Below, one piece after another: positions 1 through 46,166 of a stretch of 64,000 bases of DNA. The position numbers and the translations under genes are program-made. The stretch is from a virus, in the IMG/VR virus record IMGVR_UViG_3300042975_000098; one strand, 5' to 3'. The stretch's first letter is position 1. Each line of letters opens with the position of its first letter. The notes below the pieces were generated by a model. That model searched no databases. It saw only the letters and a program-made list of their open reading frames with translations, and was not told where the DNA came from.

Positions 1-24
1 GGCGCGTGCATTAATCTTCTCGCC

Positions 25-3253: not shown

Positions 3254-5506
3254 ATGGCCCTGCGTCCACGTCACGGCGATTCGCCGGCGACGACGCCGGC
3301 TAACCCGGAGAGGGCGGGGGAACCAGCCGATGCCGCTGGCGTCAACCAGTCGGCTTCCGTCGACCCAATTACCCGGACCCCGGTCCCAGCCGTTGGCGAG
3401 ACCGTCGCCCAAGCCGGTCATCCCGCGCTCGTCGACGAGCCGCTGGCTCCGCCCGCCATGCCGATTCCAACTCCTGATCCGCATCCGCGCCGCGCCCGAC
3501 CGCATGCCGACCACGTTGCGCCTGAGCCAGATGATCAACCCGATGATGCGGGCGATGGCGAATCTCCGGGCGCCGGCGCTTCCGGTTCGCCCCGCGGACG
3601 TTCGGCCGCTTCTTCGGGCGCGCCTCCACGCCCGGTGTCACCTATGCCCGCCGGAGCGCCAGCACCGGCCTCCGCTGCCACGCCGGCTTCGTCGGCGGCG
3701 CCTCATCAGGCTTCATCGGCTCCGCATTCGACGCGGCGCCGATCATCATCGTCGGCGGCGCCGACATCCGCTGCCGCACCGGCGGGGGCGTCGCCATCGC
3801 CATCGTCATCGGCGGGCGGCCCTGCGCCACCGGCGGTTGCGTCGCCATCGTCCGGCGGCCCTGCGCCCTCGCCGACCGCCGGCCCATCGTCATCGGCGGG
3901 CGGCGGATCGTCATCATCGGCTCCGCCCTCCCCGTCGCCGCGCCGAGCCTCGTCCTCGCGGCATGCGCCGCCGCCGAACTCGTTCGCGGCGCGCGCGGCG
4001 CGGAGCATGCGCTCGTCGGCCGGTTTCGATTCGCTGACGTCGCGCGCCGCCTCGGCCATATCGGCGGCGAAGTCGCTGGGCAGTCAGGCGTGGAACACCA
4101 TCAAGTCCGTTGCCGGGAAGACGAAGCGCGCGGTTCTCGGCTTCATCTCGTTTGTGAGGAACCCGCTGGTATGGGGCACGGCGGTGTTCCTCATCGCGGC
4201 GCTGCTGTTCACATCCCTGTTCCAGACGCTTGGCAAGGATGACGTGAAGACGTCGTGCGACACCGCCGACTCCGCGTCCACGGTGAACCTCGGTGGCGAT
4301 ATCGGGAACAATGAGGATGCGAAGAAGATCGTGGCCATTCTCAACGACCCGAAGTCCGTCGGCGCCGATTCGCTGGCCGGCAAGTTCGGCAAGACGCAGA
4401 TAGCGGCGTTGCTGGGCAACTGGACCATAGAGTCATCCATGCATTTCAACGTCACCTACGGGCATCAGAAGGACGGGGCCAGCAACTCGGATCTGGCCTC
4501 CTGGCTGTCCGGGAAGTCGGTGGCCCCGATCGGGCTTGTCCAGTGGAACGGCGGTAGGGCATCCACCCTTGTCAGGCTTGCCGATTCGGAGGGCAAGCAG
4601 TGGTATGACGGTTCCGTGCAGATGAAGATGTTCCTTAACGAGATGCAGGCCGAGTATGGCAAGACGCTTGAAGGACATGGGTTCTTCTCCACCGATGATC
4701 TACAGACGGCCACGCGGATAGTCCAGGACTATTACGAGGTACCGGCGTTGCCGGGCACGCCAGCGGCCGCCGCCGAACTGTCGAAACGCTATGCCGCCGC
4801 CCAGACTGTGGCGAAGGCGATCGGCGGCATGTCCACGACGACCGTGGAAGCATCATGCGATGATGCTGGCGCGCACGGCGATCCGAGGTTCGGCAGCACG
4901 GACAACCCCGGCATCAAGGATGACGAGTGGTCGAAGGCCAGCAAGTACGCGCAGGCGACGGTGAACACGGCGATAGCGTTCGTCCAGGATGACCGGCTGT
5001 TCTACCAGCAGCTTCCGCCGAACGCGGGTGGTTATGACTGCTCGGCTTTCGTGACCGCCGTCATCGAACTGGCGACGGGGTACACGTATGCGGGCACGAA
5101 GGTCACGAAGGGATACGATCCGAAGGATTTCTTCGAGCACCGCGCGGAGAAGACCAAGCGCGACCTTCAGTGGCCAACGTACACGGGTGGCATGATGGCA
5201 GCCGTGCCGGCGTCGTCGAAAGCATACGTCGGCATGAGCAGTGACGGCGACATCGAGGGCAAGCTCCAACCGGGCGACGTGTTCGTGAATGACGAGCACA
5301 CCAAGATGTACGCGGGTCATCGCGCGTCGGACGGCAAGGTGGTGTGGGTGCAGTCATCCTGCCCGGGGGCGGAGAAATGGAAGGATATCGCTATGACGAA
5401 GAAGCGATCTGATATGGGCGTTTCCGTGAGCTCGGGCATCGATGCCGGCGATGGAATGACCTATCAGGTGTATCGACCATACGTTCTCATGGGGTCGAAC
5501 GGCTGA
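3254..5506 (+). CDS. Conjugation peptidoglycan hydrolase: Pro/Ser-rich N-terminus, TM anchor, phage-tail-lysozyme-like domain and NlpC/P60 domain (VirB1/CwlT role)
   Basis: IAALLGNWTIES...GLVQWNGGR...YEVP (lysozyme-like) and GGYDCSAFV...LQPGDVFVNDEHTKMY (NlpC/P60 Cys-His). Confidence 0.85.
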   Translation: MALRPRHGDSPATTPANPERAGEPADAAGVNQSASVDPITRTPVPAVGETVAQAGHPALVDEPLAPPAMPIPTPDPHPRRARPHADHVAPEPDDQPDDAGDGESPGAGASGSPRGRSAASSGAPPRPVSPMPAGAPAPASAATPASSAAPHQASSAPHSTRRRSSSSAAPTSAAAPAGASPSPSSSAGGPAPPAVASPSSGGPAPSPTAGPSSSAGGGSSSSAPPSPSPRRASSSRHAPPPNSFAARAARSMRSSAGFDSLTSRAASAISAAKSLGSQAWNTIKSVAGKTKRAVLGFISFVRNPLVWGTAVFLIAALLFTSLFQTLGKDDVKTSCDTADSASTVNLGGDIGNNEDAKKIVAILNDPKSVGADSLAGKFGKTQIAALLGNWTIESSMHFNVTYGHQKDGASNSDLASWLSGKSVAPIGLVQWNGGRASTLVRLADSEGKQWYDGSVQMKMFLNEMQAEYGKTLEGHGFFSTDDLQTATRIVQDYYEVPALPGTPAAAAELSKRYAAAQTVAKAIGGMSTTTVEASCDDAGAHGDPRFGSTDNPGIKDDEWSKASKYAQATVNTAIAFVQDDRLFYQQLPPNAGGYDCSAFVTAVIELATGYTYAGTKVTKGYDPKDFFEHRAEKTKRDLQWPTYTGGMMAAVPASSKAYVGMSSDGDIEGKLQPGDVFVNDEHTKMYAGHRASDGKVVWVQSSCPGAEKWKDIAMTKKRSDMGVSVSSGIDAGDGMTYQVYRPYVLMGSNG

Positions 5507-6283: not shown

Positions 6284-6844
6284 ATGAGAGAACGCAAGAA
6301 CGTACGGACGCTGACCTTCGAGATGGTCCCCAAGGACGTGCTGCGAATAGCGGCGAAGTCCATTGGCGAGGGCGCTTTGGAATCCATCTGGAGGTCCATC
6401 GAGGATCTCGCCGATGACGGCGAGGTCGTGTTCTACCTGCTTCTGCGCGTGGTCGAGGGCGATCCCGTGGGGTTCGCCCTGTTTCATTACGAGCGCATGG
6501 AGTCATCCGGTTTCTCCTATGTCATTGGCATCATCGATGCCGTCTGCACAGCGCCGGCGTACCGCGGGCAGGGTTACGGGGCGATGCTCACGTTCAACGT
6601 GCTCAAACGCATGAGCATCCACGGCGTGAACCGTATCGAGCTTGTGCTCAAGTCCGCGCCGAATGCCGACGTCTCCGCGCCCATGGGGTCGGAGAGGTTC
6701 CTGTTCGATCTGGGGTTCAAGAAGGTGGCGTACCTTCATAACCACTGGGCGCAGGATAGCATGAACCACCCCTACGACTGCCCGGTGTGCCATGGGCGCC
6801 CGGATTCATGCGTCGGCGTGCTCATGGCCATCAACGAGACCTGA
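6284..6844 (+). CDS. GNAT-family N-acetyltransferase with C-terminal Cys cluster
   Basis: Motif A VCTAPAYRGQGYGAML and C-terminal CPVC-x6-C. Confidence 0.85.
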   Translation: MRERKNVRTLTFEMVPKDVLRIAAKSIGEGALESIWRSIEDLADDGEVVFYLLLRVVEGDPVGFALFHYERMESSGFSYVIGIIDAVCTAPAYRGQGYGAMLTFNVLKRMSIHGVNRIELVLKSAPNADVSAPMGSERFLFDLGFKKVAYLHNHWAQDSMNHPYDCPVCHGRPDSCVGVLMAINET

Positions 6845-6904: not shown

Positions 6905-9900
6905 GTGCTCGTGAACGTCGCTTATGCTGGCCGGCGACCCGTCATCGGCTCGTACCGGCCGCGGACGATCGTCCGCCGCGTGGTCGCATCGATCATGATC
7001 GTCGTGTTCCTGCTGACCGGCGTGATCGTCTCCGCGTCCGCGGCGTTGGCTGATGACGATTGTTCGCCCGGTGATTCCAACCCCGTGTACAAGCAGTTCA
7101 AGAAGGCGGCGTGCCAGGGAATTCACTCGCCGGACGGCTCCGACCCGCTCGACAAGGTGATGAGGAACGACCCGTCGAAGAATGACGAGTCGCTGGGCGT
7201 GGTCAGCCTCATCTACAATCGTATGCTCAACCCCGCGTACTACATCAACTCCGGGGTGAACGCTGGCGACGCCGACTCGTGGAAGGGTCATTGCGCGGCG
7301 TTGGATTCGCCGCCGACGTTATCGAACAACAACTGCGACGTGCCGGGGATACTCACCGAGGCCATCCAGGACGTGGCGAACGTCATCGAGCCATCGGGTA
7401 TCACCAGCGGGCAGAAGGACGTGGCGAAGACTCCGCTTGGGCTCGGCATCGCCACGTCGCTGCTTCCGACCGACGACGTGCCCGCCAAGGCGGAGGACCG
7501 CACGTACAAGTACACCGGGCTTGAGGACTTCGGATACAACCTGCAATGGGTGAGGTACGCCGGCGAGTGGGATTACGTGAAGGTGTACACCGAGGATCGT
7601 CTCAAGACGTCCATGGGCCTCGGCGACGCGATATCCCTGCCGTTCAAATCGCTGTGGTCCGGCATGAAGTCCGGGGTCGGCGTCTACTCCGATCTCGTAT
7701 CGAAGCTTTCCAGCGGCGACTACTCCGGTCTCGCCGGGTCATTGCTTCACGCCAACCCGTTCGGCTCGGCCGCCGCCGCCGGCGACGCCATGAGCTACAC
7801 GTTCCTGAGCACCGTGCTCAATGGCTATGAGCAGACCGTGGTGAAGGACGGTTCGTGGTACCGTCCGGAGTTCGCCAACTCGACGGTGTATGGGTCGCGC
7901 TCGCTTACGGACATCGAGATTGCGGCCTTGTCCCGCGTGAACGTCGTCGACCTGTGGAACCAGAACATCGCGGGGGTGCTGGGCAAGTATGGCATCGACG
8001 TCGACGGTCTGAAACGACAGTCGGCGGCGCCGGCCGCTCCGGTGAAGGACGTCAAGAAGGACAAGGACGGCAATATCGTCAAGGACAAGGACGGCAAGGA
8101 TGTCACCGAGTACGAGCCGTGGTCGAAGTGGAAGTCCGAAAACCAGAAGCAGATCGACTGGGGGAAGGCCAACCTGAACGTCGACGCGGGCAAGTATGAC
8201 GACTCGGCCGGTGATGCGCTCGACAAGTACAACGCGCTGAAGACCGAGTGGTCCAAGGCAGCCGACTCATGGGTGGAGGCGCAGTCCAAGGCGCAGGAGG
8301 ACCAGAACATGCCCTCCATCCTGTCGGATATGGGAACGCTCATCGGCGGCGCGACGTCGACGTTGCAGCAGTCCGCGTCGAATCCGTCGTCGGCCCTGTA
8401 CTGCGCCGATGACGAGAACCAGCCGGTCGGCTCCGCCAGCAACGCCATCGTGAAGTCGGCCGTCTCCAAGGGGCTGCGCGACCCCGGCAAGGAGGCGTTC
8501 GACGCGGATGGGAACTGGGCGTGCGGCGGCTCACCGCGCCCGACCATCGTCGGCGGGCTGTTGGGCTCCGCCGGCGACGAGCAGCAGAAGGCCTCCAAGG
8601 ACACGAGACGCACCGCATGGGGCGGGTTCAACATCATGGACACGCTGCTGTGGAACAAGTTCGATTGGCTCTCCCAGAAGATACTCGGCGCCAGCCAATG
8701 GCTGGCCATGCTGACGAACCAACTCATCGCCATGAGCTACCAGCCGATACTCACGCAGCTTGGTCTGAAGGCGCTGACCATCAAACTCGTCACGGCGTTC
8801 AAGGACACGATATACATGAACCTGCTGGTGCTGTTCATCGCCATCGCCGCGCTCATGATACTGCTGCGGTTCACGAAGGGCGAGTGGACCGCGAGCTTCG
8901 GCCAGATCGGCGGTCTCGGGATGACGATCGGGCTCGGCATCATCGTGCTGCTGTCGCCCTCGGCCATCTTCACACTCGTTGATGACGCGCCATCGATGCT
9001 CGAACGCGCGGGCATGGCCACGATACTCCAGCCGTCCGCGAACGATGCCGTCTGCAGTGCGACGGGAACGGCGAAGGGCACCATATCGGTCGGCGATTAC
9101 GTCGACCTGTTCGGCAAGGACACCGGTTTCAACCCTGATTCCACAGTGCGGACCATGCAGTGCGACGTGTGGAAGGCGTTCGTCCTCAACCCATGGGCCT
9201 TCGGCCAGTTCGGAACCAACATCGACAACCTGTACGCCGACGGCCACGCCGGCGAGGGCGATTCCGGCGCATCGGATATGAAGACCAGCACCGACGTCCG
9301 GAAGATCGTGGGCGACGCCGCGGTCAACATGGGCGACGGGAAGATCGTCAACAACTGGGGGATCTACCAGTTGTCGCATGAGCTGTCCGGATCGTCGACG
9401 ACCGTGGACGCGACGGCGACGAACGGCGTCATCGACAAGGACCTGTACCGGCTCGTCGATCTCCAGGCCGGGCCGGATAACGCGGCCGGTCGCACCACGA
9501 AGTACTTCGAGGCTTGGAAGGGCTCGACGGCATCGCGCATGCTCGTGGCGATCGTGGCGCTGGCGTCGAACGTCATGGCGCTTATCGGACTTGGCGGTCT
9601 GGCTCTGCGCAAGATCGAGTACACGGTGCTCATGTGCCTGTTCCTCATGATCCTGCCGTTCATGCTGCTCATCGGTCTGCTGCCCGGGAACAGCAGGATG
9701 AAGCTCAAGTCGTACGGCTGGGAGATTCTCGGGCTGGTGCTCAAGCGCGTGTTCTCGGTGATCATCCTCACCGTTGGCATCATGGTGGTGCTCGGAGGGC
9801 AGACTGGCGACTCGGACTTCTTCACCCAGTCGTTGGCGACGATGGCGCTCGCGGGCGTGGTGATGATCTACGGGCCGAAGCTTCTTGGGCTCATGTCATC

Positions 9901-11527
9901 CAAGGTCGACGAGAAGGCCGGATCGTTCCACGATTACGGGAAGAAGGCGCAGGATTACGCGGAGAACAACCCGTACCTCGCCATGGTCCGGGATGATTCA
10001 CGTTCGATGGCCGTGGGCACGGTCGGCGCGATACTGGGCAACGCCGCAGCCGGCCGTATCTTCGACCCGGCTTCGTCATCGCATGTCGCCGATGCTTATA
10101 AGCTTAACCTGGCGACCAGGGTTCGCACCACGAGGAACCAGGCCGCCTCGGATTACCAGAGCGCGGTCGACAAGGCCGATCATGATTATCGCCAGCATAA
10201 GACCACGGCCGCGGAGCACGACGCCGCCATCGCGGCCGCGAGGGCGGCGCGCCGCAGTGCCATGAGGTCCGTGGCGCCGCAGGCCGCGGAGCTTCACGCG
10301 CTGAACAACGGATCGCTGTCGGCGAAGGTCAAACTGGCCGATGACATCAGGAAGGCGAAGACCGTAAGCCCCGCCGAACTCGCGAGAATGTCAGCCGCAG
10401 AGCGGGCGCGCATCACCAAGCTGCGTGGGCTTGCTGGTGGTCTCGACCAGGGGGGCAGTCTCGCGAAGTCCGTGGCGCATAGCACGAATGTGCTGTCCAA
10501 CCGCGCCAACTACATGCGGCATCGCAAGGGTCTCGGCATAGGTTCGCTCGACGTGATGAACGACGTCCGCAAGGAGGCCGACCAGCAGAAGCGTGATGCC
10601 GCCGAACGCCTTCGCGACTCCGGTGGCGAGGCGATGCCGGACCCGACCGTCATCGGGTCGCCGTCGAGGAGCATATCCGAGGACCTTGCGAACGGCGGGG
10701 CGTCCAAGGATGACATCACGACGATACTTCAGTCACGCTCCGGCGACTTCCGGTTCGTGGAGAGGGCGCTCGACCCGGATGCCTCCGCGGCCGATCGCGC
10801 GCGCGGCCGTCGGGAGCTGACGGAGATCGTCGACGGGGCCGCGCTCCCCGACGCCGATAAGGAGAAGCTCAAGGACAACATCGCGCTGTCGGCCATGAAG
10901 GACGATAACGAGATCGCGCGCCGAAGCGCCATGAAGGATGCGCTCGGCTCCGATTTCGTGAAGCGCACGTTGCGTCACCGTGAGGCCACGAAGGAGGCGA
11001 ACACGCGGGCGGTCAAGAACTCCCGGAACAGCAAGATCAGATCGATCCAGTCATCATCGCTGTCCGATTCCGCCAAACAGGCGGCGTTCGCCATGGCGGA
11101 GAGCACGTTCAAGACGAAGATGACCGAGCTGAACATGAACGATTCCGATTGGCTGTCGGCGAACTACTCGAGTCTGGAGTCGAAGCGCTCGGCGAAGATA
11201 GCCTCGGACCTGGCATCCGGCAAGGTCAAGCCCTCCACGGCTTCGGAGATGCGTGACCGTCTCGCCAAGGGAGGAGCCGAGGTCCGACGTCGTGGAACGA
11301 TAATCAAGAACATCGACGACTACGCCGCCGGCCGGCTTCCCGCCGCGGCCGCAAAGAGGATCAAGGCGAGGATACGCGCCCAGCGGGCGGCGGACACGGA
11401 CACGCTGGGGGTGACCCGCTCGGCGACGGACGCGAAGAACAAGGCGACCCGGGCGACCCGGTCCGCCCGGCGCGCCGCGCATGACGTTCACGAGAACGTT
11501 TCATCGCATCTGGACGGGCTGCTCTGA
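6905..11527 (+). CDS. Large VirB6/TrbL-like conjugation membrane protein, paralog 2
   Basis: Signal/TM, large extracellular region, CDVWKAFVLNPWAFGQFG, NWGIYQL, TM bundle and long charged cytoplasmic tail. Confidence 0.7.
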   Translation: MLVNVAYAGRRPVIGSYRPRTIVRRVVASIMIVVFLLTGVIVSASAALADDDCSPGDSNPVYKQFKKAACQGIHSPDGSDPLDKVMRNDPSKNDESLGVVSLIYNRMLNPAYYINSGVNAGDADSWKGHCAALDSPPTLSNNNCDVPGILTEAIQDVANVIEPSGITSGQKDVAKTPLGLGIATSLLPTDDVPAKAEDRTYKYTGLEDFGYNLQWVRYAGEWDYVKVYTEDRLKTSMGLGDAISLPFKSLWSGMKSGVGVYSDLVSKLSSGDYSGLAGSLLHANPFGSAAAAGDAMSYTFLSTVLNGYEQTVVKDGSWYRPEFANSTVYGSRSLTDIEIAALSRVNVVDLWNQNIAGVLGKYGIDVDGLKRQSAAPAAPVKDVKKDKDGNIVKDKDGKDVTEYEPWSKWKSENQKQIDWGKANLNVDAGKYDDSAGDALDKYNALKTEWSKAADSWVEAQSKAQEDQNMPSILSDMGTLIGGATSTLQQSASNPSSALYCADDENQPVGSASNAIVKSAVSKGLRDPGKEAFDADGNWACGGSPRPTIVGGLLGSAGDEQQKASKDTRRTAWGGFNIMDTLLWNKFDWLSQKILGASQWLAMLTNQLIAMSYQPILTQLGLKALTIKLVTAFKDTIYMNLLVLFIAIAALMILLRFTKGEWTASFGQIGGLGMTIGLGIIVLLSPSAIFTLVDDAPSMLERAGMATILQPSANDAVCSATGTAKGTISVGDYVDLFGKDTGFNPDSTVRTMQCDVWKAFVLNPWAFGQFGTNIDNLYADGHAGEGDSGASDMKTSTDVRKIVGDAAVNMGDGKIVNNWGIYQLSHELSGSSTTVDATATNGVIDKDLYRLVDLQAGPDNAAGRTTKYFEAWKGSTASRMLVAIVALASNVMALIGLGGLALRKIEYTVLMCLFLMILPFMLLIGLLPGNSRMKLKSYGWEILGLVLKRVFSVIILTVGIMVVLGGQTGDSDFFTQSLATMALAGVVMIYGPKLLGLMSSKVDEKAGSFHDYGKKAQDYAENNPYLAMVRDDSRSMAVGTVGAILGNAAAGRIFDPASSSHVADAYKLNLATRVRTTRNQAASDYQSAVDKADHDYRQHKTTAAEHDAAIAAARAARRSAMRSVAPQAAELHALNNGSLSAKVKLADDIRKAKTVSPAELARMSAAERARITKLRGLAGGLDQGGSLAKSVAHSTNVLSNRANYMRHRKGLGIGSLDVMNDVRKEADQQKRDAAERLRDSGGEAMPDPTVIGSPSRSISEDLANGGASKDDITTILQSRSGDFRFVERALDPDASAADRARGRRELTEIVDGAALPDADKEKLKDNIALSAMKDDNEIARRSAMKDALGSDFVKRTLRHREATKEANTRAVKNSRNSKIRSIQSSSLSDSAKQAAFAMAESTFKTKMTELNMNDSDWLSANYSSLESKRSAKIASDLASGKVKPSTASEMRDRLAKGGAEVRRRGTIIKNIDDYAAGRLPAAAAKRIKARIRAQRAADTDTLGVTRSATDAKNKATRATRSARRAAHDVHENVSSHLDGLL

Positions 11528-11544
11528 TGCGATATTCACCGGGC

Positions 11545-14022
11545 ATGGGTATCGCATCGTATGGCCGCGCCGCGGGGCGCTCATACCGTCGCGTGCCCGT
11601 ATGGGCTCGCTCGCTCGTCGTGCTCCTGCTCATGGCGGTGCTTGCCCCGCTGGCGGTGGCGCTGGCCGCTTCGGCGAACGACGCCCGCGCCGGCAGCATC
11701 GTCCAGTACGTGCTGTGCTCATGGGAGGACCCCAACGACAAGAAGGCCATTCCCGTGGTCAAGACGGTGTACGAGATCACGCAGACGGAGGACCTCCAGT
11801 ACCAGTTGTTCTCGAAGTCGGCGATCGGCGCGTCCGCGGCCGACCCCGGGTACGACATCCCGTCGATGCTGGCCATGTCCGATTACGCGAAGAACAACCT
11901 CGACATCGTGAACTCCGGCAACAAGACCGCCAGGAAGTACACGCCGTACGATCTGTACGGTTATGCCGGGATGAACTTCACGAACTACCAGGGCGAGTGG
12001 AACTGGCTGAAGGTGTATTACTGCACGTCCGATAACAAGGGAACCGGAGAGGATAAGGCCCCGGAGGATCTCAAGCTTAACCTCTACTATCAGAACCGCA
12101 AGCGACCCTTGGACAACTGGGCCTCGCGAGCGGCGTCGCAGGACCCCCGCGTCCGGCAGCGCACGAACAACCTGTACGCGAGCAACATGTCGCTTGACAT
12201 CGCGAACATCATGTTCTGGGTGACGAAGCTGGTGACCGCGTTCTGCACCTCGCTGATGGCGTTGTCGTTCTCGAACATCGTGGATAAGATGGGACTCATC
12301 GGCGCCATGAAGCCCATCATGACGAACCTGTTCTCCGGGCTGTTCTGGCCGCTGATGTTCATCATGATGGTCATGACAGCGGTCACGCTCATCAGCATGG
12401 GCCTTATCAAACGCCAGTACCGGCAGGCGCTCGGTGCGTTCATCAAGGCGCTGGCCTGCATGGCCGGCGGCATCTTCATCTCCATGTACCCGATGCTCTT
12501 CCTATCGCTGCCGAACGACGTCGGTCTGCTCGGCCAGTACCTCGTCATGAGCGGCCTGAGCAACACCGCGAACGTGTCCGGCGACGACTTCTGCTCCACG
12601 GACACCACGGAGGGCGGGTTCAAGTCCGTGAGCCTTGACGTGGTGCGTAACGGCCGCATCGACGACGAGGCGATAACGAACGCGCTGTCATCGGCGGCTG
12701 ACGCCTCGTCTCGGGCCATGACGTGCTCGTACTGGAAGCTCTTCGCGCTGACCCCGTACTCGCTCGCACAGTACGGTTCCTCGTATGACACGCTGTACGC
12801 GAAGGGGAAGGCGCCGGCCGGCTCCACCGAACTGGGGAACAAGAACACCTACCCGGGTCTCGCCGCGGTGCCGGTCGGCAACGACAAGACGATCAACAAC
12901 TGGCTGATCTACCAGTTGAGCGCCCAGAACGTGGCGCATGTGCCCAGCGCCATATCGGACGCCTCAACCGGCGCGATAACGAAGCCGTCGAAACCGTACT
13001 CGAACGTCGACCAGTACGCACGTCAGAACAAGATGGTGAACAACGTGTACGGCGACTGGTACCGAACCGTGGACGCGCTGTCGAACTACGATGTCGACGG
13101 GTCGAACAACAAGACGAAGGATTCGGCGGCCACGACGAACCAGTGGACCATGTGGATCGGCAATGCGCAGGGCCAGCGCATGATGGTGGCGATGCTGTCG
13201 ATCCTCGTGGCCGTGGTCGGCACCATGGGTCCGATCGTCATGGGCGCCACGGTGGTCGTGGCCGCGTTCGCGTGCGTGCTCATCATGGCGTTCGCGCCGC
13301 TGGCGCTCACGTTCGGCATGTGGGCCGGTCGCGGTCAGGAGATCCTCAAGGGGTGGTGGCAGCTTCTCATCGAGAGCATCGTCAAGCGGGTGGTGCTCGG
13401 TCTCGTGTACATGGTCATGCTGGTGCTCGATCTCATCATCATGCGTGGCATCGGCGGTCTGGGCGATTATCTGAAATCGGCTATCATCGTATCATTGCTG
13501 TCATACGTCATCGTGAAGAACCGGTCGGTCATCGTCAGGCTGTTCACCAGTTCCGTGGGCGGCTCGTTCTCGGCGACGAGGAACCGCATCGGCGCCACCA
13601 TCGGCAAGCACGGTCACGGCGCGGTGAATGGGGTTCGCAACGTCGGGGTCGGCGCGGTCGGCGGCATGCGCAACCATCTTGGCTCGAACGCGTTCAAGTC
13701 GACGGTGAAGGGAGCCGGCATCGGAGCGTCACGCACCGTGAAGAACAGCCTGTACACGTCCGACATGGGCCGCAAGATACTGCAGGCCGAGCAGATCACC
13801 AAGAACCAGAACGAGAAGGCGCGCCGCCGCAAGGAGGGGCTGTCCGATGACGATGACAACACGGATAACGGCACCTATGAGTACTTCCAGTGCGAGTCCT
13901 GCGCGAACATGGTGACCGCGGCGGACTATACGGACGTCTACGGTCACATCGTCTGCAACGACTGTTATGATTCCGGTGCTTGGCGAAGCGTACCGGGAGC
14001 GGACAGATGGGGTAGGCCGTAG
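11545..14022 (+). CDS. VirB6/TrbL-like conjugation membrane protein, paralog 3, with C-terminal CxxC...CxxC
   Basis: CSYWKLFALTPYSLAQYG, NWLIYQL, GRGQEILKGW and C-terminal CESC...CNDC. ATG 11545 is 8 nt after GATATT (alternative start 11527). Confidence 0.7.
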   Translation: MGIASYGRAAGRSYRRVPVWARSLVVLLLMAVLAPLAVALAASANDARAGSIVQYVLCSWEDPNDKKAIPVVKTVYEITQTEDLQYQLFSKSAIGASAADPGYDIPSMLAMSDYAKNNLDIVNSGNKTARKYTPYDLYGYAGMNFTNYQGEWNWLKVYYCTSDNKGTGEDKAPEDLKLNLYYQNRKRPLDNWASRAASQDPRVRQRTNNLYASNMSLDIANIMFWVTKLVTAFCTSLMALSFSNIVDKMGLIGAMKPIMTNLFSGLFWPLMFIMMVMTAVTLISMGLIKRQYRQALGAFIKALACMAGGIFISMYPMLFLSLPNDVGLLGQYLVMSGLSNTANVSGDDFCSTDTTEGGFKSVSLDVVRNGRIDDEAITNALSSAADASSRAMTCSYWKLFALTPYSLAQYGSSYDTLYAKGKAPAGSTELGNKNTYPGLAAVPVGNDKTINNWLIYQLSAQNVAHVPSAISDASTGAITKPSKPYSNVDQYARQNKMVNNVYGDWYRTVDALSNYDVDGSNNKTKDSAATTNQWTMWIGNAQGQRMMVAMLSILVAVVGTMGPIVMGATVVVAAFACVLIMAFAPLALTFGMWAGRGQEILKGWWQLLIESIVKRVVLGLVYMVMLVLDLIIMRGIGGLGDYLKSAIIVSLLSYVIVKNRSVIVRLFTSSVGGSFSATRNRIGATIGKHGHGAVNGVRNVGVGAVGGMRNHLGSNAFKSTVKGAGIGASRTVKNSLYTSDMGRKILQAEQITKNQNEKARRRKEGLSDDDDNTDNGTYEYFQCESCANMVTAADYTDVYGHIVCNDCYDSGAWRSVPGADRWGRP

Positions 14023-14115
14023 CATGACCGGTCGCGTTACGGCGTTGCCCGGCTGTCGATCCGCTCGCGGGGCGTGATCGGTCATCATCGATTCCATACG
14101 CGATATTCGTGTTCC

Positions 14116-15318
14116 ATGGCAATCCAGTTCAAGTCGCTCATCGATAACCTGCTGTCGCCTATTCGCGGTCTCATCGGCGCGGGCGGCGGCAAGTCGAAGG
14201 CGAAGCCCGCCGGCTCCGGCCGCCCTCCCATGAGCGATTACATCGACGATAGCGTCATCGAGGATGACGAGGATCGCGCGTTGAAATCAGAACTGGGCTC
14301 GAAGAGGCCCGAGACGTTGGACCTCATGGATATACCCGATCACCGGGACCCTCCCGATGACGTGCTCAGCCCCGGTGACATGTCCGCCATAAGGTTCACC
14401 ACCACCAGGCCGGAGGGGTATTCGAAGAAGCAGGTCGCCGCTTACTTCCGCGTCGTCAAGAAGAGCATCAGGTGGTGGTATGACACCATGGCCACCAGGG
14501 ATGGCGAGATAGCGGCGCTCGGTACGCAGCTTGACAAGATGTCGACCGACCTTCACAATATGAAGCTTAACGCGGAGATGGCCGAGGGGCTGTCCGTGGT
14601 GACAGGCGATGACTCATCGACGGAGCAGGAGCTCATGCAGGCCCAGATCACGATAGGCAATCTCAACGATCAGATCGCGAAGCTGAAACGACGCGCCGGG
14701 TCCGGTGAGCCCGGACCGGGGGACTCGCGGTTCGATTCCATACAGAACGAACTGGCCATGTCGCAGTTGGAGAACAAGAAGCTCCGCAAGTCGTTGGAGT
14801 CGATGCGCGCGTCGCTGGCCGCCGCCAACGAGGAGGCGCTTGGCGTGGATGGCGTGCCCGTCGGACATGTGGTCGATCTGCCGGCGCCTGACGTGTCGAC
14901 GCCGCTGCGCGCTCCCGTCACCGATTCGGTTCCGCCGCCGGATGATGACGAGGGCGCCGTCCCGATCCCGCGGGTGACCGCCATGGAGCCCGGCGCGCTC
15001 GGTCATGACGATGCGCTGACGCCGCCGTCGTTCGATGACGACACGCCATCCACGGTAGACGCCACGTCGACCGCGCCCGACGTGGCGCTGCCCTTGCCGG
15101 CGCTGCCGGATGATGACGATGACGGCGGTGCGCTGCCGTCGCCTCCTGTCGATGGCGGTCTTGGCCTGCCGGAGCCATCGCTCCCCGTTGCTGGAGCCGG
15201 TGATGTTCCGCCGTCGGATGATGACGTGGATCTCATCCAGCCGTTGCCGGATGGCATCGGTGATGATGACATGGAGGACCTTGACTTCGGCGACGGGGAT
15301 GATTTCACCTTGGAGTAG
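14116..15318 (+). CDS. DivIVA-domain coiled-coil protein with acidic Pro-rich tail
   Basis: LSPGDMSAIRFTTTRPEGYSKKQVAAYF resembles the DivIVA N-terminal motif (LTPxDI...F...GY...V..F), followed by coiled coils. Confidence 0.7.
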   Translation: MAIQFKSLIDNLLSPIRGLIGAGGGKSKAKPAGSGRPPMSDYIDDSVIEDDEDRALKSELGSKRPETLDLMDIPDHRDPPDDVLSPGDMSAIRFTTTRPEGYSKKQVAAYFRVVKKSIRWWYDTMATRDGEIAALGTQLDKMSTDLHNMKLNAEMAEGLSVVTGDDSSTEQELMQAQITIGNLNDQIAKLKRRAGSGEPGPGDSRFDSIQNELAMSQLENKKLRKSLESMRASLAAANEEALGVDGVPVGHVVDLPAPDVSTPLRAPVTDSVPPPDDDEGAVPIPRVTAMEPGALGHDDALTPPSFDDDTPSTVDATSTAPDVALPLPALPDDDDDGGALPSPPVDGGLGLPEPSLPVAGAGDVPPSDDDVDLIQPLPDGIGDDDMEDLDFGDGDDFTLE

Positions 15319-15325
15319 GCTCCTG

Positions 15326-15448
15326 CGTCGATTACGCTCATACGATAAGCAAACGCTTGCCGTGTGAGCGTATTTTTCATGCGGCGTCGGAAAAACGGCG
15401 TTTTCGATGAGGGTATCACAAAACGTCGAAAACGCCGCATACGTGGCT
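15326..15448. repeat. Palindromic intergenic repeat, copy A (hairpin plus T5, then a second inverted repeat)
   Basis: TACGCTCA...TGAGCGTA TTTTT and GGCGTTTTCGA...TCGAAAACGCC. Homologous to 46044-46166. Confidence 0.85.
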
Positions 15449-15482
15449 TACAGCACGTTTACGACCCGGTGGCCGTGCGACC

Positions 15483-15490
15483 GGTATAAT
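15483..15490 (+). promoter_or_regulatory. GGTATAAT -10 promoter, class 1 (representative; TATAAT also starts at 17789, 30971, 32378, 34370, 35058, 41460, 48881, 50048, 54477)
   Basis: Perfect sigma70/SigA -10 hexamer preceded by GG at 10 gene boundaries in a high-GC background. Six copies have a start codon 6-7 nt downstream. Confidence 0.85.
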
Positions 15491-15496
15491 GCTCGC

Positions 15497-17776
15497 GTGA
15501 GAAGGATACTACGCCCGTTGGGCCTGCTGTTAGCGTACGTACTCGGAATGTCAGCCGCGATCGCGGTGCTGGTCGCCGTGATCGGCTCGGCCGCGCTCGG
15601 CGGTCTCGCCCCGGCCGTGAAGTACTGGAACGAGTCCCCATCGAAGCTGGCAGACGTTCATGTCGGCCAGCGCTCCGTCATGTATGATAAGAACGGAACG
15701 CAGTTCGCGGAGATATGGAGCGAGAACCGGGAGACCGTGGACTCGCTCGACAAGGTGTCCAAGTACGTCAGCTCCGGTGTCGTATCCGCGGAGGACAAGA
15801 ACTTCTATCATCACGGGGCGTTCGATCTGGTCGCCACGATTCGCAGCGCTGTCACCGGATCGGGCGGCGGTTCGGGCATCACCCAGCAGCTTATGAAGAA
15901 CCTCGCCTATTACGGCTCCGATGACAGCGGCAAGACGAAGGTCACGGAGACCACCATAGCCCGCAAGGTGCGGGAGCTGAAACTCGCCATGTACTACGAG
16001 CGGGACCACTCGAAGCAGGACATCCTGCTCAAGTACCTGAACACAGTGGCCATGGGTTCGCCGAACGTGTACGGCGTCCAGACGGCCGCGCAGACCATAT
16101 TCGGCAAGTCGGCCGCCGACCTCACGCTGAAGGAGTCGGCGGCGCTCGCGGGCAGCGTGAACAACCCGAGCCTGTACAATCTCATGAACCTCGCGGACAA
16201 GTCGACGAGCGCCCGCGTGGCCGCCCGCACCGATTACGTGCTTGGACGGATGCTCGCCGATGGCGTCATCACGCGGGCCGAGTACCGTGACGCCAAGGCG
16301 GCGCCGCTCACCACCGACATCCATGTGGCCAGCGGCGGGTGCGGGGCGTCGAAGTACCCGTTCTACTGTCAGTACGTCGTCAGCTACATGCTGGGATACA
16401 AGCTTCTCGGCAGCACCGCCAAGGATCGGGCGGCCGCATTCGGCGTCGGCGGCTTCGCCATACACACCGCCCTCGACCCGGTGAAGATCGAGAAGCTGGA
16501 GAAGCATCTCAAGGATGACTACGGCGTTCACAACCGCGCCGTCCAGGCCACGGCCGTGGTCGAACCGGGAACGGGCGGCGTGCTGGCCATCGGAGCCAAC
16601 CGCGACTGGGGCGTCGACGCGAATGCCGGGCAGACGCAGATCGTGCTCGCGGACACGCCCACGCAGGTCGGTTCGACGTACAAGATGATCACGCTCGCCG
16701 CCGCCCTGAACGCCGGTTGGACCGAGCAGCAGCTTATGAGCGACGTCAGCGCCGCGTGTCCATGGGCCAAGCCGGGCTTCGACTACCCGGCCGGCGGCAT
16801 GCAGGTGTCCACGTCATGCGCGCTCCAGGGAGGCAGGCTGAGTTACCTGCAGGCGACCGCCTACTCGTCCAACGTGTGGTTCGCCGAACTGGAATCGCGC
16901 ATCGGCGTGCTCACCGTGAAGAAGTTCAGCGGCGAGGTCGGGCTGAACACCCCGGACGCCATCAACGCCCGCTCCGCGTCGTTTACGCTCGGAGTCGTGG
17001 GTGATTCGCCCATCCAGATGGCGGCGGCGTACGCCACGTTCGCCAACAAGGGCGTGTACTGCCCGGCGACGCCGATAACGTCGCTGTCGCGTCTGGACGG
17101 CTCCTCGATAACGCCGCCGGACGATTATGACGATTCGGCCTACTCGTGCCGGTCGGTGATGAGTCCGAGGTCGGCGAGCATCGTGCTGAAGGCGCAGAAC
17201 GCTAACGTGAACGGTCCGATGCCCGGCCGTTTCGGCATCGACGGCATGATATCCGGTCGGTCGACGGTCGGCAAGTCCGGCACCGGCGACAACTACGCGA
17301 ACCTCTCGTGGGCGCAGACCACGCAGCAGATGGTGGTGTTCTCGGATGCTTACGACCCCCGCGGCAACTTCCGGTACCCGCTCGACTACGTGGTGTGGCG
17401 CGGGTACGGCGTCGGGCCGTTATCCGAGTTCGTGGTGAAGACCACGCGCGACTACATCGTGGACGCGCTCGACGGCGTTCCCAACGTGGCGCTCGACATG
17501 GATAACCAGCAGACGTCGTTCCTGAAGACGCGCAGCAGGAACCCGGATCTCATCTCCGTCCCCGATCTCACCGGCATGTCCCCGTCCGCGGCGCTGGCAA
17601 CGCTTTCGGCTCGCGGGCTGGACGGAGCCGTGCTGGCGCATGGTCGGCGCGTGGACGCGCGGGCCGCCGACGCCGGCTGGGGCGATTCCGTGGTGGTGGG
17701 CCAGTCCGTGGCGCCGGGAACCTCCATCATGAGTGGTTCGAAGCGCGTCATCGAGTTGTCGCTGGCGTCACGCTGA
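15497..17776 (+). CDS. Class A penicillin-binding protein (transglycosylase, transpeptidase and PASTA; PonA-like)
   Basis: GT51 motifs EDKNFYHHG, GGSGITQQLMKN, RKVRE and KQDILLKYLN. TP motifs STYK, SSN and KSG. C-terminal PASTA VPDLTGMS. Confidence 0.92.
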   Translation: MRRILRPLGLLLAYVLGMSAAIAVLVAVIGSAALGGLAPAVKYWNESPSKLADVHVGQRSVMYDKNGTQFAEIWSENRETVDSLDKVSKYVSSGVVSAEDKNFYHHGAFDLVATIRSAVTGSGGGSGITQQLMKNLAYYGSDDSGKTKVTETTIARKVRELKLAMYYERDHSKQDILLKYLNTVAMGSPNVYGVQTAAQTIFGKSAADLTLKESAALAGSVNNPSLYNLMNLADKSTSARVAARTDYVLGRMLADGVITRAEYRDAKAAPLTTDIHVASGGCGASKYPFYCQYVVSYMLGYKLLGSTAKDRAAAFGVGGFAIHTALDPVKIEKLEKHLKDDYGVHNRAVQATAVVEPGTGGVLAIGANRDWGVDANAGQTQIVLADTPTQVGSTYKMITLAAALNAGWTEQQLMSDVSAACPWAKPGFDYPAGGMQVSTSCALQGGRLSYLQATAYSSNVWFAELESRIGVLTVKKFSGEVGLNTPDAINARSASFTLGVVGDSPIQMAAAYATFANKGVYCPATPITSLSRLDGSSITPPDDYDDSAYSCRSVMSPRSASIVLKAQNANVNGPMPGRFGIDGMISGRSTVGKSGTGDNYANLSWAQTTQQMVVFSDAYDPRGNFRYPLDYVVWRGYGVGPLSEFVVKTTRDYIVDALDGVPNVALDMDNQQTSFLKTRSRNPDLISVPDLTGMSPSAALATLSARGLDGAVLAHGRRVDARAADAGWGDSVVVGQSVAPGTSIMSGSKRVIELSLASR

Positions 17777-17844
17777 CGCTCCGCCCGGTATAATGAACAC
17801 AAAGCAAGCAAGCCGTGATCGACGGCGTTGAAAGGATTACTGAT

Positions 17845-18975
17845 ATGAGACTGACATTTGATCATGACAGGTTCGTGGCCGCCGTCAAGTGGGCGCTGCT
17901 GGTCGTTGACAGGAAGAAGCCCGGTTCGAGCGTGAGCATACAGCCGTCGGAGGACGGCCGCGTTGTGGTGTTCGGCGCCGATGATGGTCGTGCGAACACC
18001 GCGGTCGTCGATGCCGTCGTCGACGATCCCGCCGATCTTCGTCGGATCGACCTCTCCGCCGTGTTCCTGAAGAAGTCCATCGACCGTTTCATGGATGACT
18101 CGCTGGTGCTGGAGAGCAAGACCGCGGACACGAAGATCATGTCGGGCATCACCGTCAGCGTGCCGATGATGACCGGTGCATGGAACAAGCCCATCGACCT
18201 CAAGTCGTACAGGAAGATCGGCACGCTTGACCCGCGCGACCTCTCCGCCGCGGTGAAGAAGCTGCTCACCCTCACCGATTCCACCACGCAGGACAAGCGT
18301 TTCTCCACCATCGACTTCACGTTCGCCAAGGGTTCGCTGGGACTCATGGCGACCGACCGTTTCTCCCTGTCCGTCCGAACGCTGGCGTACGACTACGATG
18401 ATGACTGCGATGACGCGCGCATGCTCATACCCGGCTCCGGGCTGTCCGCGCTGACGGCCGCCCGCGACGCGCAGACGGTCACCGTGTACCATGATGACAG
18501 TTCAAGCGTCTTCGTGTTCGACAGCGGCGAGACCGCGCGCATCGACCTGCTCCAGGAGGAGCCGCAGGAGTACGCGCCGCTCGTGTACTCGACGCCGCGC
18601 GAGCATGAGCATTCGTTCACCGTGGACGAGTCCGAGCTTCTCAACCTCGTGAACACCGCCGACGCGCTGTCGGAGTCGACGCCCGACGTCATCATCCAGG
18701 CGGGACCTGACGGCGGCGAACTTTGGAACAAGGACGAGACGCTTCACGCGCCGCTGGCCCTCGCCGACGTCGATTTCGACAAGCCCATGCGATTCCGCTT
18801 CCAGACGGTCATCATCAGCGAGACGCTGGCGTGCTCCGATGGCGGTCGCATCAAGGTGCGGTTCGTGGACGCCGTTCAGCCCATCGTGTTCTCGCAGGTG
18901 AAGGAGGATGGCTCGGTCGACGATTCGGTCTACATCCTCAGCGTGCCCGTGGACGATTCGGCGGCCGTCGAGTAG
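17845..18975 (+). CDS. dnaN: DNA polymerase III beta sliding clamp (divergent)
   Basis: ~376 aa with LMATDRFSLSVR (ATDxxRL motif) and C-terminal YILSVPV. Start placed at ATG 17845 after AAAGGA. Confidence 0.8.
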   Translation: MRLTFDHDRFVAAVKWALLVVDRKKPGSSVSIQPSEDGRVVVFGADDGRANTAVVDAVVDDPADLRRIDLSAVFLKKSIDRFMDDSLVLESKTADTKIMSGITVSVPMMTGAWNKPIDLKSYRKIGTLDPRDLSAAVKKLLTLTDSTTQDKRFSTIDFTFAKGSLGLMATDRFSLSVRTLAYDYDDDCDDARMLIPGSGLSALTAARDAQTVTVYHDDSSSVFVFDSGETARIDLLQEEPQEYAPLVYSTPREHEHSFTVDESELLNLVNTADALSESTPDVIIQAGPDGGELWNKDETLHAPLALADVDFDKPMRFRFQTVIISETLACSDGGRIKVRFVDAVQPIVFSQVKEDGSVDDSVYILSVPVDDSAAVE

Positions 18976-19045: not shown

Positions 19046-20953
19046 ATGATGGCCATTACGAAACCGGATTACGAGCGTCTTGAGGACGTCTTCCCGTCGT
19101 TCGACGCGGGCGACGGGCAACGGGGTCTCGATGACATACCCCCGGAGTTCGCGAGTCTTGTCCGGATCATGAGCAGGTCGTTGGATCACGTGAACCGGGT
19201 ACACTCGATCATGGTGAGCGGTTCGCCGCTCACGGGGAAGACGTTTCTGATCCGCTCGTTCGCCGCCGCGCTCGCCGACCTACCGTCCACGTTCGCCACC
19301 CGTCGCGTCCGGACGATCTCGCCGGACGCCAAGGACCAGGACGTCATGGCCATGGCGCGCATCCTCGGCGGGCATGACGCGAAGGACATCGTGTACACCA
19401 CCGATTACCGTGATGCGGTCATGGTCATGGAGGCGAACCGCTCGGTGTCCGTCATTCTCGAGATACAATCCGACCAAGCGCTCGGCTCACCCGCCATGAA
19501 CGATCGCGGCATCATGTCGAGCTTCGATGTCGTGGACCTCGACGGGCTGGATATGACCTGGGGTTCGTTCGTCCATGAACTACAGACCGTGAACCGCACG
19601 CAGTACGAGCCCAAGTACCACATGAGGGTGGACGATCGCGACGTCGCCCGGTTCGCAAGGGCGGCGTGGCGCGCGGGCGTGCTGGATGCCTCGGATGAGG
19701 ATTGGAAGCGCAAGATCCCGCGACGGGGCGACTCCATATCGTTCCCGATCGGCATCGCCGTCGACCTCCTCGAGACGGTGGAGCTCCGCATGACCGAGAC
19801 CGGCCCGGGCGCATCCATGCGCCGTCTGGTCACGGATGCCGCCGATGACACGCTGGCGCTCGGCAGCGACTACTCGGACGTGAACCACATCATGGGACTG
19901 GATCGACTGCTCGCCGAGGGCGGAGAGTTCGAGGCCGATGACGAGGGCGTCGACGATTCCGATGCGGATTCGGAGCCGGTCATCCACCCGTACTCGGACA
20001 TAACCACGCTCCCGGATCGCCTCCATGACCACATCGTGGGGCAGGACGGCATCGTTGACCGGATCAGCGACGCGCTCGCCATCGACGCCGCCGGACTGCG
20101 GACGAAGCCCGGCCCCATCGCCTCGTTCGTCTTCCAGGGACCTTCCGGCGTCGGCAAGACGGAACTCGCACGCGTGCTGGCGGAGGAGGTATTCGCCGCG
20201 CCGGTACAGTTGATCCGGCTGGACATGTCCGAGTATGCGGATGAATCCTCGCTGAGCAAACTCATCGGCTCGGCGCCCGGTCTCGTCCAATCCGAGGACG
20301 GCGGCAGGCTGACGAACGCCATCAAGCAGCACCCGCAGTGCGTGCTGCTGCTCGATGAGGCGGAGAAGGCGCATCACACCGTGTGGAACACGTTCCTGCA
20401 GGTGCTTGACAGCGGAGTGCTGACGGACGCCCGCGGCATGACCGTCGATTTCAGCCATGTCATCGTGATACTGACGACCAACCTCGGCAATAACGAAGCC
20501 CTGCGCCCCAAGGCGGGGTTCGGCTCGCAGGGCGGGGACCATGAGTCGATGACCTCGTTCTTCAAGGAGGCGCTTCGCCGTTACTTCCTCCCCGAGTTCA
20601 TAGGCAGGCTCGACTCGGTGTTCGTGTTCGGCAGGCTCGACCACGAGGAGCTTCGGCGCATCGTCCGCATGCAGCTGGACAGGCTGCGCGGCGCTATCCA
20701 TGATGGCCATCGTTCGCTGACGATAACCATTGATGACGATGACGCCATGATCGACTGGCTTCTCGATCAGGCCGATTCGGACAGGTTCGGCGCGCGCGGC
20801 GTCCAGAACGTGATTCGCAGGCGCGTGGCGCTCCCCGTGTCGCGTTGGATCATATCCCATGAGAGCGACGCGGACGCGCGGGCGGTGACGGTCGCCTACG
20901 AATCCGGCAGTAACGATATTGTCATGACCGACAATGGAATCAAGGGGGCATGA
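19046..20953 (+). CDS. ClpA/ClpB-family AAA+ ATPase (intact D2, degenerate D1)
   Basis: IVGQD, GPSGVGKT, IRLDMSEY, LLDEAEKAH, PEFIGRLD and FGARGV, with a remnant N-terminal Walker A GSPLTGKT. Confidence 0.88.
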   Translation: MMAITKPDYERLEDVFPSFDAGDGQRGLDDIPPEFASLVRIMSRSLDHVNRVHSIMVSGSPLTGKTFLIRSFAAALADLPSTFATRRVRTISPDAKDQDVMAMARILGGHDAKDIVYTTDYRDAVMVMEANRSVSVILEIQSDQALGSPAMNDRGIMSSFDVVDLDGLDMTWGSFVHELQTVNRTQYEPKYHMRVDDRDVARFARAAWRAGVLDASDEDWKRKIPRRGDSISFPIGIAVDLLETVELRMTETGPGASMRRLVTDAADDTLALGSDYSDVNHIMGLDRLLAEGGEFEADDEGVDDSDADSEPVIHPYSDITTLPDRLHDHIVGQDGIVDRISDALAIDAAGLRTKPGPIASFVFQGPSGVGKTELARVLAEEVFAAPVQLIRLDMSEYADESSLSKLIGSAPGLVQSEDGGRLTNAIKQHPQCVLLLDEAEKAHHTVWNTFLQVLDSGVLTDARGMTVDFSHVIVILTTNLGNNEALRPKAGFGSQGGDHESMTSFFKEALRRYFLPEFIGRLDSVFVFGRLDHEELRRIVRMQLDRLRGAIHDGHRSLTITIDDDDAMIDWLLDQADSDRFGARGVQNVIRRRVALPVSRWIISHESDADARAVTVAYESGSNDIVMTDNGIKGA

Positions 20954-46034: not shown

Positions 46035-46043
46035 GCGGCGCTA

Positions 46044-46166
46044 CGTCGATTACGTTCGCACGGCAAGCATTCGCTTATCATATGAGCGTATTTTTCGTAC
46101 GACGTCGAAAAAACGGCGTTTTCGATGACGACATCACGAAAACGCGATCCGGCGTTCTGCGTGGCT
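46044..46166. repeat. Palindromic intergenic repeat, copy B
   Basis: CGTCGATTACG...TGAGCGTATTTTTC...AAAAACGGCGTTTTCGATGA shared with 15326-15448. Confidence 0.85.

Follow-up and report, generated by a model that had tools for sequence, protein, structure and literature searches.

A DivIVA-like coiled-coil gene next to an intact class A PBP gene on a giant mobile element: a likely junction of two modules

The DNA analyzed here is a stretch of 64 kb from the IMG/VR virus record IMGVR_UViG_3300042975_000098, which we call the window. All of its genes lie on the plus strand, its GC content is about 0.63, and relatives of its proteins sit on contigs of up to 347 kb. At positions 14116..15318 the window encodes a coiled-coil protein of 400 amino acids with a DivIVA-type motif, and directly 3' of this gene a class A penicillin-binding protein (PBP) at 15497..17776. 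The initial annotation had interpreted the two genes as a polar-growth kit carried by a mobile element. The gene pair is present as it was described there; the DivIVA-type motif is below threshold in the single protein and is supported at the level of the protein family.

The longest open reading frame (ORF) of the PBP gene, 15407..17776, corresponds to 789 amino acids and matches the Pfam families Transgly (1.3e-43), Transpeptidase (2.7e-18) and PASTA (1.6e-7). A single transmembrane segment is predicted at residues 41–59 of the ATG-started ORF; from the protein family, the catalytic domains would be located outside the membrane. The window PBP was aligned with 21 relatives of 38–61% identity. 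In agreement with the initial annotation the catalytic motifs are intact, being invariant in all 22 sequences: E129-D130 (EDxxF), G153-Q161 (GGGSGITQQ) and R186-K187..E190 of the GT51 domain, and S423xxK426, S487xN489 and K623xG625-T626 of the transpeptidase domain. The GT51 motif residues were also found in all 22 rows of a second alignment which included outgroups. With both sets of motifs and an N-terminal anchor the protein has the sequence features of a class A (bifunctional) PBP. The TIGR02074 model PBP_1a gave 254.9 bits, which is under the curated value of 508.75; the protein is therefore a divergent class A PBP. Six cysteines predicted to be extracytoplasmic are invariant (C312/C321, C552/C581 and C451/C471). 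The pair C451/C471 is specific to the clade of element PBPs described below, low-GC elements included. Nothing in the PBP sequence favored a role in beta-lactam resistance.

The true start of the PBP gene is probably GTG 15497 and not ATG 15407. Several features of the sequence point to this. Most PBP homologues start a few residues ahead of the membrane segment, and a TATAAT -10 hexamer (15485..15490, plus strand) is located 6 nucleotides (nt) upstream of the GTG codon. ATG 15407 falls within a non-coding element of 126 nt which is repeated at 46041..46166. Furthermore, in comparison with a 95% identical homologue 14 of the 30 residues between ATG 15407 and GTG 15497 differ, versus 28 of the 759 residues thereafter. 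A TANNNT hexamer 6-7 nt 5' of the PBP start was detected by script in the window and in the related loci L005, L006 and L098, and by eye in L007. This arrangement of TANNNT and start codon is the design of leaderless mRNAs, which are common in Actinomycetota. As GTG 15497 is likely a leaderless start, gene callers probably mis-start the PBP gene.

The repeated element occupies 15323..15448 on the plus strand. The 88 nt past the stop codon of the DivIVA-like gene contain two terminator-like hairpins, with a run of T residues after each of them (terminator-like site 15353-15371). They fold with −38.8 kcal/mol (z −4.72), and none of 200 shuffled sequences was as stable. The second copy, also on the plus strand, lies between a TadB-like and a MoxR-like gene (repeat family D4, 75% identity; 79% column identity when aligned). 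In both copies the conserved part reaches the first ATG of the downstream ORF, which encodes the PBP and the MoxR-like protein, respectively. Spanning about 126 nt, the element might serve as a cassette of terminator and promoter or encode a small RNA; an Rfam scan of 13900-18100 gave no match at E<=1. Two runs of a single study supplied RNA-library contigs; these cover portions of either gene, and their depth is the highest of the stretch on the hairpin element. Some of these contigs diverge on both flanks of the element.

The ORF of the DivIVA-like gene opens at GTG 14074 (414 amino acids), and relatives start at ATG 14116. A GATATT hexamer (14102-14107) is found 8 nt upstream of this ATG; judged from the sequence, the gene may have its own near-leaderless start. 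No membrane segment is predicted for the protein. It consists of a leader of about 80 residues, the DivIVA-type motif of 35–40 residues (approximately 14365-14487), a coiled coil of about 140 residues (to approximately 14838) and an acidic, proline-rich disordered tail of about 150 residues. The Pfam DivIVA model matched residues 98-158 of the 414-residue ORF with 17.6 bits (cut-off 28), and TIGR03544 matched residues 98-124 with 14.6 bits (cut-off 22). Since both matches fall at the same place, the motif is present, although sub-threshold for single-sequence models. A word-indexed protein search yielded three near-identical relatives. With the exhaustive HMMER search the family grew to 230 representative clusters at E<=0.001; for 110 clusters the value was E<=1e-10. 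The alignment of the family was too variable to serve as a query for loci.

The domain call was tested on an alignment of 62 family members. Thirteen of these matched Pfam DivIVA at E<=0.01, the best with 1.5e-4. Compared with solved N-domains the family profile matched DivIVA (2wuk, E 0.005; 2wuj, 0.027), GpsB (0.1) and Wag31 (0.35), in all four cases at profile positions 72-106 and amid coiled-coil noise. After trimming to a head of 58 residues the profile aligned to residues 3-41 of Micromonospora DivIVA with 17.7 bits. For nine DivIVA-domain paralogues of two Micromonospora genomes, profile-profile alignment with hhalign gave a probability of 90.3% (P 1.5e-6, score 31.4). The best of 30 column shuffles reached 14.3, and the coiled-coil part alone 21.8%. 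Within the motif G101 is invariant, and F94, P99 and V107 are conserved in at least 90% of the 62 sequences. The N-domains of DivIVA, Wag31 and GpsB (2wuj, 2wuk, 6lfa, 8e2c) share with the family the motif L-x-P-x-D-[LVM]..V.F....P.GY...V..F...V, followed by a long coiled-coil helix. The head of the protein is very likely DivIVA-like on these sequence comparisons.

Structure prediction was less specific. AlphaFold2 gave a predicted local distance difference test value (pLDDT) of 89–97 only over residues 71-150 and a disordered tail from residue 250. The model shows a short helix, two bridge residues, a helix of 56 residues (104-159) and two more helices. Searches with Foldseek (full-length protein and N-domain) and VIA-align (N-domain, best Z 5.9) returned only generic long-helix and coiled-coil matches, the monomer models being dominated by one helix. 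DivIVA-domain clusters of the ESM Atlas appeared only at scores of 0.83–0.85, which is the level of a lead. A single-sequence search of solved structures yielded no DivIVA, and tblastn of the protein against plasmids no match.

The DivIVA N-domain is located at the extreme N-terminus, and its hydrophobic/basic loop tip inserts into the membrane. In the window protein the motif begins at residue 84 of 400, and in relatives at residues 78–167; it is thus internal. The loop is shorter than that of Micromonospora DivIVA and reads T-R-P-E, with no evident hydrophobic or basic tip. Among 401 Actinomycetota genomes the family gave one marginal match, which was confined to the coiled-coil part. Because of the internal motif, the short loop without a tip and the near absence from these genomes, the protein is, as judged from its sequence, not a DivIVA orthologue. 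The leader of 80–165 residues before the motif and the long acidic disordered tail also distinguish the family from DivIVA, Wag31 and GpsB.

The DivIVA-like gene closes a block of membrane protein genes. The block opens with a GNAT acetyltransferase gene (6284..6844, plus strand; Pfam Acetyltransf_1, 2.3e-8). A giant membrane protein of 1540 amino acids follows (6905..11527, plus strand) with six transmembrane segments and a VirB6/CD3337-like segment (NCBIfam CD3337/EF1877, 2.1e-10). The next gene (11527..14022, plus strand) encodes a VirB6/CD3337-like membrane protein of 831 amino acids with seven transmembrane segments (NCBIfam, 5.7e-14) and a C-terminal CxxC...CxxC zinc-ribbon tail. In this tail (C-terminal 161 residues, 13537-14022) C789, C810 and C813 are invariant in eight homologues; its sequence suggests a cytoplasmic docking or nucleic-acid-binding tail.

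The gene order was compared across relatives. The PBP clade was represented by 17 metagenome loci, 15 of them with upstream context, and by 14 IMG/VR loci. In addition, five relatives from IMG/VR which are rated 100% complete (G003-G007; 310–438 kb; loci L098, L101, L102, L105 and L106/L108) were searched whole. As these five were found via the PBP, an unbiased count can be had from them only for the presence of the DivIVA-like gene. They are catalogued as viruses. In G007 every searched gene occurs twice, in a mirror-image arrangement with inverted terminal repeats, apparently the result of a doubled assembly. A phage identity was considered and set aside, because an HK97 capsid was found in none of the five (other capsid and terminase families were not searched) and conjugation-type genes were present.

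All five complete relatives carry the DivIVA-like gene and the PBP gene on the same strand, once per element copy, and one GT51 gene per element copy. The co-occurrence check proposed with the initial annotation was therefore positive for records found via the PBP. The order on this strand is the same in all five: hydrolase, membrane block with the DivIVA-like gene, PBP. Adjacency of the two genes is not kept. The DivIVA-like gene stands immediately 5' of the PBP gene in two of the 15 metagenome loci (L005 and L007) and in one of the 14 IMG/VR loci (L098), that is, in 3/29 loci. Among the complete elements the genes are adjacent only in G003; in the other four the DivIVA-like gene lies 20–34 kb upstream of the PBP gene. 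Its constant neighbor is the homologue of the 831-residue VirB6-like protein, which directly precedes it in 8/8 cases (window, L005, L007 and G003-G007). This homologue is itself preceded by that of the 1540-residue protein in G003-G007, L005 and L007, the latter protein having homologues in all five complete relatives (E 1e-90 to 1e-200). A GNAT homologue was found upstream of the membrane pair in G004, G006 and G007, while the stretches of G003 and G005 ended short of this position (3/5). In the distant relatives L011 and L014 the PBP gene lies 3' of genes for a DnaB helicase, a small protein and an AAA-type protein, and 5' of a DnaN-like clamp gene. By this synteny the window is the junction of two modules and not a conserved operon. 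On balance it is somewhat more probable than not that the two genes are separate core functions of a widespread family of giant plasmid-like elements (about 0.3–0.44 Mb), which abut only in the branch of the window.

Further differences were seen near the PBP gene. The closest relatives L005 (12520-13134), L007 (6549-7148) and L125 (6202-6690) carry a small coiled-coil gene of 162–204 codons between the PBP and clamp genes, which is absent in the window. For the product of the L005 gene a weak match (1.4e-5) to the coiled coil of the DivIVA-like family was obtained. Upstream of the PBP gene of the close relative L006 (GC 0.37; 8742-9886) there is a RecA gene, together with 1.1 kb in which the gene strand has no ORF of at least 60 amino acids; the sister L007 has the DivIVA-like gene at this place. 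This comparison of L006 and L007 suggests a recent rearrangement at the module junction.

These data bear on the polar-growth kit of the initial annotation, in which the DivIVA-like scaffold would mark a membrane site and recruit or activate the PBP at a mating junction, an outgrowth or a repair site. DivIVA- and GpsB-type heads bind PBPs in Gram-positive bacteria. The two genes are adjacent on the same strand in the window, L005, L007 and G003, which form a well-supported subclade, and the presence of both on one strand in all five complete elements would also agree with such a kit. However, the same survey showed adjacency in only 3/29 related loci and a distance of 20–34 kb in four of the five complete elements, which does not fit a conserved two-gene unit. 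The hairpins and a separate promoter of the leaderless type between the genes also speak against it. Moreover, the PBPs have 3–9 residues before the transmembrane segment (by script; 3 in the window from the GTG start) exactly in the subclade with adjacent genes. With so few residues there is little PBP surface for a cytoplasmic scaffold. A longer cytoplasmic N-terminal tail of 35–50 residues with an acidic-FF motif (DDFF, DEFF, EDFF) occurs in the distant subclade (e.g., L011, L012, L104 and L105), where the genes are far apart, and is absent from the subclade of the window. According to its sequence this tail may be a docking peptide for a cytoplasmic partner. Taken together, a dedicated kit is unlikely.

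The origin of the PBP was investigated by similarity searches and phylogeny. Its relatives comprise 113 protein clusters with at least 516 bits (39–95% identity), located on contigs of up to 727 kb, and the next match drops to 338 bits. A single-query search yielded nothing in IMG/VR and only distant Micromonospora PBPs in species genomes. A DNA similarity search of the locus against plasmids gave no match. A tree was calculated with IQ-TREE (short search, LG+G4) from 54 hand-picked rows of about 220 PBPs: 20 from the element clade, 11 from the next-best group and 23 others including Micromonospora, Nocardia, Collinsella and Listeria; near-duplicates and weaker metagenome matches were omitted. 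The 20 element rows form one branch (Shimodaira-Hasegawa approximate likelihood ratio test, SH-aLRT, 100; stem 0.55), in which the subclade with adjacent genes is a branch of its own (6 rows, support 100). The elements carrying this clade span GC contents of 0.36–0.63. Because the PBPs form one clade over this GC range and have a clade-specific cysteine pair, the PBP was inherited with the element. A recent capture from a host is not supported.

Chromosomal PBPs are similar in design. The architecture of transmembrane segment, GT51, transpeptidase and PASTA domains is the same in the chromosomal class A PBPs of Actinomycetota with a C-terminal PASTA domain (PonA2 type). C312, C321, C552 and C581 are common to the window PBP and the PBPs of Micromonospora and Nocardia and are not shared by those of Listeria and Collinsella. 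The window PBP differs from the chromosomal PBPs by an identity of at most about 37% outside the element clade, by its separate, fully supported clade, by the extra pair C451/C471 and by its location on a mobile element. Class A PBPs with 33–35% identity to the window PBP are also encoded on cultured Arthrobacter-group megaplasmids of 375–440 kb (e.g., NZ_CP099467.1, NZ_CP053545.1, NC_011879.1). In the tree they belong to the group that neighbors the element clade. Their gene neighborhood differs, and the DivIVA-like family and the 831-residue membrane protein were each found on none of two such megaplasmids.

A conserved bifunctional PBP on giant plasmid-like elements has already been published for the Inocles (PMC12340149). 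Inocles occur in oral Streptococcus, reach 395 kb and encode a Pol III, a gyrase and VirB4/VirD4 of their own (PMC12340149). According to that paper, every Inocle taxon keeps an N-terminally anchored bifunctional transglycosylase/PBP, whose gene is transcribed in saliva and which its authors read as promoting host peptidoglycan synthesis; neither PASTA nor DivIVA is mentioned there (PMC12340149). The window resembles Inocles in its genes for DnaE, GyrB, DnaB, SSB and a sliding clamp, and the complete relatives in a conjugation-type ATPase and the single GT51 gene (5/5). The domain of the Inocle marker InoC, Replic_Relax PF13814, was over the cut-off in none of the five complete relatives; a weak match of 22.1 bits was seen in G006, which has the lowest GC content. 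The window covers only 64 kb of an element of about 347 kb and has a GC content of 0.63; the elements were likened to Inocles by the published description of the latter. New are the breadth and monophyly of the PBP clade, the usual place of the PBP gene in a replication module and a DivIVA-like family tied to a channel block. This last link appears to be undescribed: our literature search found no connection of a DivIVA-type protein to a conjugation channel, the nearest co-mention being DivIVA in a reference list.

The PBP might also be a cargo that benefits the host, providing redundant or stress-tolerant wall synthesis and raising the fitness of the carrier with no link to transfer, and the DivIVA-like gene would then be unrelated. 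The interpretation given by the Inocle authors, the position of the PBP gene among replication and maintenance genes and not transfer genes in the relatives with scanned flanks (L011 and L014), and the position of the Arthrobacter-group megaplasmid PBPs beside the element clade are in line with such a role. The strict single-copy conservation over the whole GC range together with the clade-specific cysteine pair better fits a need intrinsic to the element, and the lysozyme-type hydrolase is conserved as well (5/5 elements), so that we regard a cargo role as rather improbable. It is least probable of all that the DivIVA likeness is spurious and 14116..15318 encodes a generic coiled-coil protein, for although every single-sequence match stays under the curated cut-offs, solved structures gave no DivIVA with the single sequence, few family members reach E<=0.01 and coiled-coil proteins dominate the profile matches, the weak matches share one location, the 35–40 residues ahead of the coiled coil, and three solved N-domains of the DivIVA type are among them, the hhalign value was approached neither by shuffles nor by the coiled-coil part, and the motif residues are conserved.

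We therefore return to the reading of two separate functions. Somewhat more probably than otherwise, the DivIVA-like protein serves the channel block as a scaffold, and the PBP is a wall synthase which is intrinsic to the element and expressed independently, as far as can be concluded from sequences. Starting from gene integrity, PBP family membership, synteny, co-occurrence and monophyly as observed, we infer localization, partners and physiological role of the two products as follows. The DivIVA-like protein, whose gene ends the block of GNAT, giant membrane protein and VirB6/CD3337-like protein, would act as a cytoplasmic scaffold or adaptor of the membrane channel of the element, which resembles a type IV secretion system (T4SS). 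It may place this channel at curved membrane such as poles and septa, as DivIVA-type heads do. Transcription of the PBP gene would start at a separate -10 promoter past the terminator hairpins and give a leaderless mRNA, and the PBP would polymerize and cross-link peptidoglycan outside the membrane. There it could supplement or reseal the wall which the lysozyme-type hydrolase of the element opens for channel or pilus assembly, or otherwise keep the wall of the carrier cell intact.

Several points weigh against this reading. The T4SS assignments are below the curated cut-offs (TrbL 25.2 vs 25.9 bits; CD3337/EF1877 40–57 vs 120; TcpC 17.9 vs 27), and so are the two DivIVA matches of the single protein. 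The internal position of the motif and the loop with no evident tip depart from a membrane-inserting DivIVA N-domain. The proposed tie of the DivIVA-like protein to the membrane proteins comes from synteny only. For a repair role of the PBP the indications are indirect, namely co-conservation and the role of class A PBPs in wall repair. The promoter and terminator calls are consensus matches, and the RNA contigs can show neither transcript ends nor strand nor level, their uncovered parts being uninformative. Finally, the adjacency of the two genes falls in a well-supported subclade (6 rows, support 100) and could reflect selection for co-regulation and not chance.

At the 5' end of the window a VirB6/TrbL-like polytopic membrane protein with five transmembrane segments is encoded (1..2505, plus strand), the 5' end of the gene being outside the window (Pfam TrbL 25.2 bits, cut-off 25.9; NCBIfam CD3337/EF1877 mobilome membrane protein 1.5e-15, 56.9 bits, cut-off 120). 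It is followed by a peptidoglycan hydrolase (3254..5506, plus strand) with a Phage_lysozyme2 domain at residues 377-521 (Pfam 8.5e-19, 68.6 bits). Hydrolases with this domain and an AAA_10 conjugation-type ATPase are present in 5/5 complete relatives. Concerning the upstream context, the initial annotation was right about the VirB6-like genes and the lysozyme-type hydrolase; the NlpC part of its description did not hold, as no NlpC/P60 domain was detected in the window at E<=0.01 and one was seen only in the upstream gene of the relative L005. Downstream of the PBP gene lie genes for a DnaN-like sliding clamp (17815..18975, plus strand; phrog_947 2.5e-25, TIGR00663 7e-5), with clamp-like genes also 3' of the PBP gene in relatives, and for a ClpB-D2-type AAA+ ATPase (19046..20953, plus strand; Pfam AAA_2 3.9e-50, ClpB_D2-small 5.2e-11), which has a homologue in G003. 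Farther downstream a weak TcpC-like match, SSB, DnaB, Tad-type pilus ATPase and platform genes, SbcC, GyrB and DnaE were found. The VirB6/CD3337-like proteins, the lysozyme-type hydrolase, the weak TcpC-like match and the arrangement on one strand are shared with Gram-positive conjugation channels, which comprise a VirB6-like membrane protein of the CD3337/EF1877 type, a TcpC/VirB8-like protein and a dedicated wall hydrolase. Unlike these, the window has three very large VirB6-like paralogues (one of 1540 amino acids and one with a zinc-ribbon tail), a DivIVA-like gene at the end of the block and a wall synthase.

Conjugation systems are known to carry wall hydrolases. That an element codes for a wall hydrolase, a wall synthase and a DivIVA-like protein, as had been noted initially, holds for all five complete relatives, each time on one strand. 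One may speculate that a DivIVA-derived targeting or scaffold subunit, a lysozyme and a hallmark PBP form a self-contained system for opening the wall, building through it and resealing it. It would be core to an unnamed superfamily of giant elements in low- to high-GC hosts, of which the Inocles would be one branch; we offer this proposal only tentatively. The comparison also holds a negative lesson, since adjacency in one window had suggested a kit which comparative synteny does not bear out.

With the PBP clade as a practical marker such elements can be found, and IMG/VR lists several of them as viruses. The DivIVA-like family is a candidate for how a Gram-positive transfer channel gets positioned, which is a question in monoderm type IV systems. 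That giant elements of a whole lineage keep a wall synthase as a single-copy core gene suggests a need for peptidoglycan synthesis of its own in very large mobile DNA, or a benefit from it.

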